This document shows, in pieces, positions 30,262 to 31,932 of a stretch of DNA of 64,000 nucleotides. The notes beneath the pieces are model-generated. The model was not told where the DNA came from. It made no database searches and worked only from the letters and a program-made list of their open reading frames with translations. The translations under genes were made by a program, and so were the position numbers. Source of the DNA: Candidatus Marinacidobacterales bacterium (lineage in GTDB: Bacteria > Acidobacteriota > Vicinamibacteria > Marinacidobacterales > SMYC01); contig CBDCYI010000004.1 in the NCBI GenBank assembly GCA_965224085.1, positions 1,376,001 to 1,440,000 on the forward strand. Reading direction: 5' to 3'. Numbering within the stretch: position 1 is the stretch's first letter; each line of letters opens with the position of its first letter.

Positions 30262-30379
30262 TGATAACAATGAGTTCGAGCGGACGGCGCTGAGTCTTCC
30301 TCAAGCTCATGAATCGAATCGAGACGGCTGGGGCTTCGGCAACGTCTTCGCCGCGCCGCCGCTCAACTCACTGTTTAGC
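30262..30379 (+). other. attC site of the first TA cassette
   Basis: GATAAC-AA-TGAGTTCGAGCGGACGGCG ... CGCCGCCGCTCAACTCA-CT-GT(T)TAGC: paired arms with extrahelical bases. Confidence 0.85.
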
Positions 30380-31932
30380 TTGCGACACGAAGTCGCATGA
30401 TCGCATGTGTGAGAAAGGACGAAAAGAAAGAGCACGTGGTGTATCCCCACCATCACCCTACGCGAGCGTGCGGGTTGCACGCAGTGCAACCGGTTCGAAG
30501 CCTCGCGGACGACGTAACGAATTGGGTTGATACCTGGCGACAGGCGAACCCCTCCGGAAGCTCCATCCGGTTAAGGGCTAGGGTTGGACGATATGGTGAG
30601 AATAATCGAAGGACCGCACGCACCGTCAGTGAGTCTAGACCTACGGGAGCTAACAGGTCGGAGGCATGCTTCCTTGTGTTCGCATGCGTGGCCAGGGTGC
30701 AGGTCTTTTAATTAACTGCCTGCATCGGGATCGTAGCGCGACCGGTGTCGAGGTCCCACCTAAGTTGTCCGAGAAAGTGATCACGTGGAACGTGGAAAAG
30801 TCGAGACTCCGCCGTGTGCCACGCATGGCAAGCCGACCGTAAGGCAGGCCGACGGAGGGGCGACGATAAGAGGTCGGAAGAAGCGAAAGCCGTTCTGTAA
30901 CGGGACGGATAGAGCATGGAATAAGGCTCAACGCGAAAACCAAAGGCATCCTGCCCCGGTGAAGCGCGTGCCCACGTCCGACAGGTGTTCCGTTGCGAGA
31001 GAAACTGAAGAATCTTCGTAGATGGGAAAGCAAAAGACGGCCTTGGCCGGTGCACCCAGAGATGACGCCGTGAAATGGACGATGGTCGATTGGAACCACG
31101 CCCCGGGCGAAGTCAGAAGACTGCAGACGCGTATCGCAAAGGCTGTGAAGGAGGGCCGGTGGAACAAGGTGTATGCCTTGCAACGCCTGCTCACCCGCTC
31201 GTCCTACGCCAAGCTCCTGGCGGTGAAACGAGTGACCTCGAACAAGGGAAAGAAAACTCCCGGCGTTGACGGCGTCCTGTGGCAAGGCGCTCGGGCCAAA
31301 TGGCGGGCGGCAACATGCCTGCGCCGACGTGGCTAAAAACCTCAGCTGCTGAGACGGGTCTATATCCTGAAGAAGAACGGCAAGAAACGCCCCCTATCGA
31401 TTCCCTGCATGCACGATCGAGCGATGCAGGCGTTGTACAAACTGGCGCTGGCACCGGTAGCGGAAACCACGGCCGACCGAAACTCATACGGGTTTCGGGA
31501 AAGCCGAGGCTGTGCCGATGCCGTAGCTGCAGCTTTCAACGCCTTGTCAAAGCCGAACTCGGCACCATGGGTACTCGAAGCGGATATTGCGGGCTGCTAT
31601 GACAACATCAGCCAGGGATGGATGCTGAACAACATCCCAGTGGACCGTGAAGTTCTTCGCAAGTGGCTCAGGGCAGGGTACGTTGAAAACGGCAGACTGT
31701 ATCCTTCGCGTAAAGGAACTCCGCAGGGTGGGATCATCAGTCCCACGCTCGCGAACATGACGCTAGATGGACTGGAGCGGGCCGTCCGCAACGCAGTTCC
31801 TCTTCGCTCTCGCGTCAACTTCGTCCCCTACGCCGACGATTTCATTGTGACAGGCAAATCCAAACGCCTGTTGGAAGAAAACGTTCGGCCAGCGGTTGAA
31901 GAGTTCCTCGCAGAGCGCGGCCTCACTCTACC
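30380..31932 (+). mobile_element. Group II intron, 3'-truncated (CL/IIB-like)
   Basis: 5' end TTGCGAC; ~640 nt structured leader including GGAACGTGGAAA and a DIII-like CCGTTCTGTAACGGGACGG; RT ORF; no domain V/VI found downstream. Confidence 0.88.
31022..31932 (+). pseudogene. ltrA: Group II intron reverse transcriptase/maturase with in-frame stop (31334-31336) and 3' truncation
   Basis: VRRLQTRIAKA, NKGKKTPGVDG, RPLSIP..HDRAMQAL, GTPQGGIISPTLAN, YADD; similarity ends at LAERGLTL. Confidence 0.93.

Follow-up and report, generated by a model that had tools for sequence, protein, structure and literature searches.

How does a retroelement come to sit exactly at the end of an attC recombination site, in the direction in which the gene cassettes are read, and is such an insertion an accident or the habit of a lineage? 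These questions are raised by a group II intron in a 64,000-nucleotide stretch of the genome of a Candidatus Marinacidobacterales bacterium (GCA_965224085.1, contig CBDCYI010000004.1, positions 1,376,001 to 1,440,000 of the forward strand; hereafter the window, with coordinates counted from its first base). Here, we describe this intron, its attC target and a broad set of its relatives. We conclude, with a probability of roughly 85%, that the window carries a dead copy of a chloroplast-like IIB1 (CL1) intron whose protein lacked an endonuclease domain, and that the lineage to which it belongs homes to the top strand of attC sites, 4-7 nucleotides (nt) after the G of the R' core GTTRRRY and in cassette orientation.

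The 5' exon ends ...GCTCAACTCACTGTTTAGC at 30379 and the intron begins with TTGCGAC at 30380, directly after the R' box of an attC, on the top strand and in cassette orientation, as the original prediction from this DNA had it. The parts of the intron and its target are listed here, with EBS and IBS denoting exon-binding and intron-binding sites and RT the reverse transcriptase.

30262..30379, + strand: attC of cassette 1, with R'' TGATAAC (30262-30268) and R' GTTTAGC (30373-30379)
30366..30373 and 30375..30379, + strand: putative IBS2, ACTCACTG, and putative IBS1, TTAGC, both within the attC of cassette 1
30380..31936, + strand: degenerate group II intron assigned to IIB1/CL1, 1557 nt, with ends UUGCG and ..CCCGGU
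30435..30578, + strand: domain I core of the ribozyme (Rfam RF02012, group II D1-D4-7; 75.3 bits, E 1.2e-13, gathering score 34)
30627..30634, + strand: putative EBS2, CAGTGAGT, in an unpaired stretch just 5' of the d3 stem
30638..30659, + strand: d3 hairpin GACCT/AGGTC, with the EBS1 candidate GCTAAC (30649-30654) at the 3' end of its loop
31022..31930, + strand: broken RT gene with RVT_N and most of RVT_1 (Pfam), cut by a deletion at TCTA (31927-31930)

The intron start, the octamer pair, the hairpin and GCTAAC had all been located correctly from the outset; the end of the element, previously set at 31932, has to be moved to 31936, and what lies there is an internal deletion rather than a stop. 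The window tracks the RT gene of a relative up to ...CACTCTA and then continues with the last bases of the intron itself, TCTACCCGGT (31927-31936), after which the 3' exon begins at 31937 (CGGATGCTC). The extent of 30380-31936 is given because the intron's own last 10 nt were kept after the deletion, and a 3'-truncated copy was ruled out on the same grounds. The deletion of about 704 nt lies at the TCTA microhomology (relative L003 measures 2261 nt, the window copy 1557 nt) and took the C-terminus of the RT including the maturase domain, domain 5 (D5) and most of domain 6 (D6). Additionally, an in-frame TAA at 31334-31336 interrupts the RT frame. The D5/D6 model (RF00029) has no match in the window and is present in relatives L002-L005, L007, L008 and L011. 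Because of the stop codon and the loss of the maturase domain, D5 and most of D6, the window copy is judged to be a dead relic, predicted to be unable to move or to splice. No further copies of the intron were found in the genome of the window (G000).

With regard to class, the window RT matches the T.el4h maturase RT (PDB 6ME0) best among the solved RTs (E 3.7e-111), followed at a distance by LtrA (E 4.6e-29) and the class C RTs of GsI-IIC, E. rectale and R. intestinalis (E 5e-24 to 6e-23). TeI4h is described as belonging to IIB1, with the CL/IIB1 intron EcI5 as its closest known kin (PMC2882425). In the intact relative L002 the RT comprises 496 residues with RVT_N, RVT_1 and GIIM and without an HNH domain, which is present in the RT of the plasmid relative L104. 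D5 in the relatives begins GAGC and thus contains AGC, described as the general D5 triad, with CGC as the triad of IIC introns (PMC7923331). Further, domain I of the window intron holds both EBS elements, which pair with its own exon over 8 bp (EBS2) and 5 bp (EBS1). These features identify the intron, as far as homology can, as chloroplast-like IIB1 and not IIC, in agreement with the original prediction that it lies outside class C; the label CL1 is a probable assignment that follows from the kinship with TeI4h/EcI5 and from the precedent of the intron UHB.I2, discussed below.

The 5' exon of the intron is a genuine attC: it has the R'' and R' cores, its L boxes pair, and additional unpaired bases lie on the R''-L'' arm. 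Its arm helix consists of 6 bp, a bulge, 6 bp, a bulge and 6 bp, with the bulges on the 5' arm, and it scores 97.5 bits (E 7.6e-24, + strand) against a covariance model, R1, whose training set did not include this site. Nine attCs without a neighbouring intron went into R1, and its consensus fold (RNAalifold) is that of a textbook attC, in which an AAC/GTT R box precedes three helix segments of 6 bp separated by two bulges.

Is the adjacency of intron and attC a single event? To the reading that an ordinary homing intron made a one-off ectopic insertion next to an attC by chance, the locus itself lends some colour, as only a single decayed copy is present in the window's genome and the R' box, GTTTAGC, is non-canonical. 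The relatives tell against it. We collected 18 loci from a scan of one genome per species and 80 from a metagenome scan, and placed 69 intron 5' junctions representing 57 unique 5' exons; 27 of 95 relative loci lacked a usable 5' junction, owing to a contig end or a diverged 5' part. GTT begins 4-7 nt upstream of the splice site, mostly 5-6 nt, in 50 of the 57 unique junctions (other offsets: mean 5.5%, maximum 14.8%), and typical exon ends are ..CGTTAG|, ..CGTTAT|, ..CGTTGG|, ..GTTATG| and ..GTTAGC|. The first 20 nt of a published attC primer, GCSGCTKANCTCVRRCGTTAGSC (PMC2669170), are matched within 4 edits by 26 of 55 exons as compared with 0.41% of 20000 control windows, and within 3 edits by 13 of 55 as compared with 0.035%.

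The covariance models point the same way. R1 and its iterated version, R2, were searched against both strands of 98 sources (385 kb), leaving out L010, L014, L015, L019 and later loci. R1 has 25 matches at E<=1, all on the intron strand; 17 of these, from 13 unique exons, terminate where an intron begins. Of the 45 matches of R2, 42 lie on the intron strand and 28 terminate at a junction, the latter accounting for 21 unique exons among the 50 that have sufficient flank; the other R2 matches are co-oriented attCs upstream or downstream of introns, i.e. arrays. In the outgroup loci L103-L106, R2 matched nothing. Read on the opposite strand, the attC sites recognised by the models score much worse (e.g. 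32.2 compared with 95.6 bits), and the orientation call is therefore meaningful. Folding energy alone discriminates poorly, since 5% of random GTT sites reach -24 kcal/mol. A duplex scan with an AAC/GTT closing helix found both attCs of the window and no relative exons; this closed-helix rule is too strict because an internal loop separates the R box from the L box.

Occupied and empty sites of one attC family complete this picture. The family, to which the attC in front of the window intron belongs, is arrayed in contig 11 of the window's genome, with seven sites at E<=0.01 of which none is occupied, and in the genome of L002-L004 (G001), where two of nine sites within 40 kb are occupied and a truncated intron, L004, is found in addition. 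Empty sites read ..CTCAACTCAacGTTAGC (three sites), others GTTAGG, GTTAGA, GTTACG and GTTCGG, and the occupied ones in G001 read GTTAGA|TTGCGAC. The GTTAGC of the empty sites is the exact complement of GCTAAC in the window intron, and the earlier suggestion that the window exon carries one extra T fits with this. A further candidate, namely that the attC is part of the intron, was ruled out: in L002, which follows a different attC, homology to the window sets in at exactly 30380, and empty sites exist. Taken together, the 50 GTT junctions, the matches of R1 and R2 and the complementarity of EBS1 to the R' box of the empty sites indicate that the window insertion is not a one-off: judged by their exons, about 50 independent relatives occupy the same kind of site, as the original prediction had expected of homologous introns, and we give the one-off reading almost no weight.

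The array in contig 11 (C11:785001-799000), the second in the window's genome, has no intron; of its seven attCs, all belonging to this family, the one at 6962-7086 is inverted (- strand). About 3 kb upstream of it lies a partial integrase match (C11:787964-788176, 64 bits). The same genome contains, on many contigs, at least 10 near-identical copies of a 292-residue open reading frame with a partial match to the integron integrase (about 96 bits; positions 5-180 and 236-314), which is probably the tyrosine recombinase of a repeated mobile element.

Two individual relatives deserve mention. The intron of L017 begins 11 nt after the D5-D6/3' end of another group II intron (..CTACTCGAC ATTTAACGTTA|TTGCGAC; L017:~350-505), a tandem arrangement and not an attC. 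In L002, an insert of about 190 nt within the intron (L002:2503-2691) has terminal inverted repeats (CCCTAATCGCAAA.../...TTTGCGATTAGGG) and TTAA on both flanks, and looks like a miniature transposable element.

Recurrence at attC sites could also arise if the intron landed only once, at the head of a cassette, and the integrase (IntI) then spread that cassette behind many attCs. By sequence logic, an intron 3' of the G|TT crossover would indeed travel with the downstream cassette, and the poor IBS2 matches of many copies would be compatible with such traffic. The near-identical introns of the window, L002, L003 and L004, however, are followed by different downstream sequences, and the same holds for 27 further 3' exons. 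The first base of the 3' exon, which in the CL1/IIB1 class would pair as IBS3 with EBS3, varies. The attC of L003 is 88% like that of the window, with both the upstream cassette and the 3' exon different. Further, the distance from GTT to the intron ranges from 4 to 7 nt, roughly by RT clade, the intron is common to two further occupied sites in G001, and neither G000 nor G001 has an integrase match above the family cut-off. Spread by cassette traffic is thus improbable, if somewhat less so than a chance insertion.

The preferred reading, homing of the intron itself, leads to the question of how the attC would be recognised. The octamer CAGTGAGT (30627-30634) is the exact reverse complement of the exon sequence ACTCACTG (30366-30373). 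It occurs three times in the 64 kb window, both strands taken together, with a shuffle mean of 1.19, and the chance that such a match falls on the correct strand within the 5'-terminal ~640 nt of the intron is estimated at ~0.006, so that the match is unlikely to have arisen by chance. To place the motifs, domain I of the window was aligned with that of three plasmid introns of the same RT type (58-60% RT identity). In one of these, L105, the d3 loop TGCTGA pairs with exon TCGGCA at -6..-1 in 6/6 positions (EBS1/IBS1), and EBS2, TAATA, the five bases following CGTCA, pairs with TATTA at -13..-9 in 5/5; GCTAAC and CAGTGAGT share alignment columns with the EBS1 and EBS2 of L105. Among 36 members of the lineage (RNAalifold), the d3 stem of 5 bp has compensatory changes on both sides at three of its five pairs, the GCTAAC-type motif stands at the 3' end of the d3 loop and the EBS2 segment is unpaired directly upstream. 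The alignment and the covariation thus support the earlier assignment of GCTAAC and CAGTGAGT to the EBS1 and EBS2 positions, from which they would pair with -5..-1 over 5 bp and with -14..-7 in 8/8 positions, respectively. As a separate observation, in a sub-clade starting TTGCGAT (L043, L045, L048, L052-L054 and L056) the EBS1 loop carries an extra hairpin of ~20 nt after ..GGGATTATAA.

Several findings weigh against attC homing as we describe it, and above all against guidance by base pairing. In a fixed register, the EBS2 of 31 unique relatives pairs with its cognate exon at a mean of 4.45 of 8 positions, compared with 3.74 for non-cognate exons, and only one of the 31, the window copy, reaches a score of at least 6; the permutation p of ~2e-4 for this difference ignores the relatedness between the sequences and is thus inflated. 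Longest runs in a free register hardly tell cognate from non-cognate exons, with means of 4.23 and 4.09 for EBS1 and of 5.17 and 4.69 for EBS2. EBS1 pairs mostly over 4-5 bp (loop ..YTAAC against GTTRR), position -1 often being unpaired in the GTGCG types, and the R' box GTTTAGC of the window leaves a U-C mismatch or a 1-nt gap opposite EBS1. At the level of the sites, seven of the 57 junctions have no GTT at the expected position, a strict hairpin rule called only 14 of 50 exons (control sites: 8/1400), and the models detect between 13 (R1) and 21 (R2) of the 50 exons for which at least 110 nt are available. No copy was shown to be linked to an intact intI gene. G000 and G001 have no match to intI that exceeds the family cut-off, and L012 and L016 come from genomes with intI on contigs not matched to the intron loci.

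That base pairing alone makes up the whole targeting rule is hence not shown, because EBS2 pairing is strong in the window copy only and EBS1 pairing is usually 4-5 bp. Of the base-pair guidance originally proposed, the 8/8 match of EBS2 in the window stands, and its extension to the relatives does not follow from their mean of 4.45 against 3.74 and their short EBS1. The weak pairing may mean that recognition is assisted by the hairpin as in class C, or that IBS2 was lost when the integrase swapped the upstream attC half at G|TT, which is possible because the intron lies 3' of this crossover.

Carried to its end, the first of these becomes a targeting mode that is mainly structure-guided as in class C, in which a folded, single-stranded top-strand attC hairpin and a short IBS1 (the GTT core) would suffice, EBS2 would be dispensable and the 8-bp match of the window would be lucky or secondary. 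The insertion keeps its place with respect to the hairpin and the GTT core in an RT clade whose identities fall as low as 54-60%, cognate EBS2 scores are weak and EBS1 pairings short, the RT has no endonuclease domain, and the idea has been raised as speculation by Sonbol and Siam (PMC7923331). The EBS2 segment is nevertheless kept at the homologous place, its cognate pairing exceeds the non-cognate, and in the window it pairs 8/8. Likewise, L027/L028 have GTCGTG opposite CACGAT at -13..-8, where the near-identical intron L024, at the same site, has another EBS2, and the plasmid relative L105 has a clean EBS2. Shuffling of cassettes by IntI at G|TT after insertion would, moreover, erase IBS2 matches even if recognition were not structural. 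Recognition mainly by structure is therefore possible and, on balance, rather doubtful, though it has far more in its favour than the two alternatives considered before.

In the reading that we prefer, an intact relative would be transcribed together with the cassette array and splice out, and its RNA-protein particle would reverse-splice into an attC. There, the R' core, GTTAGC in the empty sites of the same attC family, would be bound by the 3' portion of the d3 loop (here GCUAAC), and the spacer/L' region (ACTCACTG) by the stretch just upstream of d3 (here CAGUGAGU). Priming of the complementary DNA would be expected at the replication fork, given that the protein has no endonuclease. Because the intron sits on the 3' side of the G|TT crossover, it leaves the stem and core of the attC intact and forms the 5' leader of the cassette that follows, and the attC may continue to function.

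The window intron stands within a small cluster whose remaining features are given here.

29190..29285, + strand: integron integrase gene reduced to a remnant of ~32 C-terminal residues (TIGR02249 positions 282-313, 31.5 bits)
29594..29620, + strand: degenerate 3' half of an attC, GCCGCTGCTCATCGCAccGTTATC, upstream of cassette 1 (pattern search, <=3 substitutions)
29708..30244, + strand: cassette 1, an antitoxin gene (29708-29944; PF09720, E 3.5e-10) and a ParE-type toxin gene (29951-30244; PF05016, E 9.4e-06)
31993..32603, + strand: cassette 2, a RelE/HigB-type toxin gene (31993-32316; PF06296, E 1.7e-07) and a helix-turn-helix antitoxin gene (32313-32603; PF01381, E 3.9e-10)
32616..32720, + strand: attC of cassette 2, with R'' GGATAAC and R' GTTATCA, one of the nine training sequences of R1

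The order on the + strand is thus integrase remnant, degenerate attC half, cassette 1, attC, intron, cassette 2 and attC, the two cassettes being bounded by co-oriented attCs. No convincing 5' arm was found for the degenerate half at 29594-29620. The window cluster is an attC cluster without an integrase and not a complete integron, because no integrase above the 265-bit family cut-off (TIGR02249) is present in the window's genome. An IS110-family transposase gene (417 residues; PF01548, PF02371) lies about 4 kb upstream of the cassette cluster at 24053-25306 on the - strand. A long near-perfect inverted repeat at 10839-10987, with CTGGAAC/GTTCCAG ends and an arm duplex of -36 kcal/mol, surfaced in an attC-style scan and has no attC bulge pattern.

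How coherent is the lineage as a whole? A quick RT tree of 92 rows, from which rows with fewer than 250 matched residues were excluded and which uses neither a mixture model nor bootstraps, places 88 rows in an ingroup (SH-aLRT 96), apart from L103, whose exon has no GTT, and the three plasmid introns. Starts with TTGCG or TCGCG form the majority of the ingroup and, in the drawing rooted on the outgroup, occupy the earlier branches, the GTGCG types being nested. The first and penultimate bases of 27 parsed unique introns are U/G in 18, G/A in 7, U/A in 2 and G/G in none, and eight more introns read by eye gave six U/G and two G/A. UUGCG and UCGCG starts go with ..GGU ends and GUGCG starts with ..GAU ends, L024 and L057 being the U-A exceptions. 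A contact between the first and the penultimate position of group II introns was reportedly described by Chanfreau and Jacquier in 1993. The ends of the window intron, UUGCG..GU, differ from the GUGYG..AY boundaries of group II introns, which are the published consensus (PMC7923331). From the tree and the exons we consider it reasonably probable, with less confidence than we place in the central conclusion, that this IIB1 sub-lineage, found in sediment-type metagenomes and metagenome-assembled genomes of several phyla, specialises in integrons and originated separately from the IIC-attC introns, homes to the R' core on the attC top strand in sense orientation, perhaps with recognition of the hairpin in addition to base pairing, and in most members has a co-varying U and G in place of the first G and penultimate A that are near-universal in group II introns.

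The closest published precedent is UHB.I2 (Sonbol and Siam, Mob DNA 2021; PMC7923331), described as a IIB1 ribozyme with a CL1-class protein without an endonuclease domain and with ends 5'-UUGCG..GU-3', located immediately after an attC in cassette orientation, for which a role of the top-strand hairpin was speculated. By its published description, it resembles the window intron in class, in ends, in its sense position after an attC and in the toxin-antitoxin cassettes around it, and the original statement that such an element had not been described has to be withdrawn on this account. It differs in being one full-length copy from a soda-lake metagenome, whereas the window copy is decayed and from another organism. 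Its authors report no close relatives (best 53-56% identity) and poorly conserved flanking exons, whereas dozens of relatives with a common attC R' target are found here. In the literature, with subscription papers outside the scope, we found no lineage-level description of attC-targeting IIB introns, and only PMC7923331 treats IIB introns in connection with attC. The window element is accordingly a new, decayed member of a kind reported once, and the recurrent, clade-wide pattern is the new part.

As described, the IIC-attC introns (S.ma.I2 and kin) combine an RT of class C with a small IIC ribozyme that has no EBS2; their insertion point is TTGT/T in R'' on the bottom strand, and they run against the direction of the cassettes (PMC7923331, PMC4424553); a 2015 review, in its account of the subject, assigns attC targeting to class C only (PMC4424553). 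Like them, the window lineage lacks an endonuclease domain, specialises in attCs including attC clusters without an integrase and lies beside the attC stem-loop; unlike them, it has a CL1-like RT and an EBS2 segment and inserts into the top strand after GTTRR(R) of R', in sense orientation. An intron reported in the attC top strand of Enterobacter cloacae shares the cassette orientation with the window intron, but it belongs to class C and is a single case (PMC7923331, ref. 31). With EcI5 and TeI4h, the latter providing the nearest solved RT, the window intron shares the layout of domain I, in which EBS1 occupies the d3 loop and EBS2 immediately precedes the d3 stem; these introns home to defined sites, and the TeI4h protein, as reported, contains an endonuclease (En) domain (PMC2882425), unlike the window lineage.

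Integron arrays have been known as targets of class C introns only, bar the one reported IIB1 case. A widespread IIB1 lineage inserted in the attC top strand, in sense orientation and past the crossover, would represent a second, independent strategy of retroelements in cassette arrays, and such introns could be spliced from array transcripts and ride with the cassettes. The lineage offers natural material for asking whether IIB introns can use DNA hairpins as class C introns do, and whether the contact between the first and penultimate bases is flexible, with U/G instead of G/A. Further, because IIB introns serve as gene-targeting tools, an attC-directed IIB intron could have practical interest.

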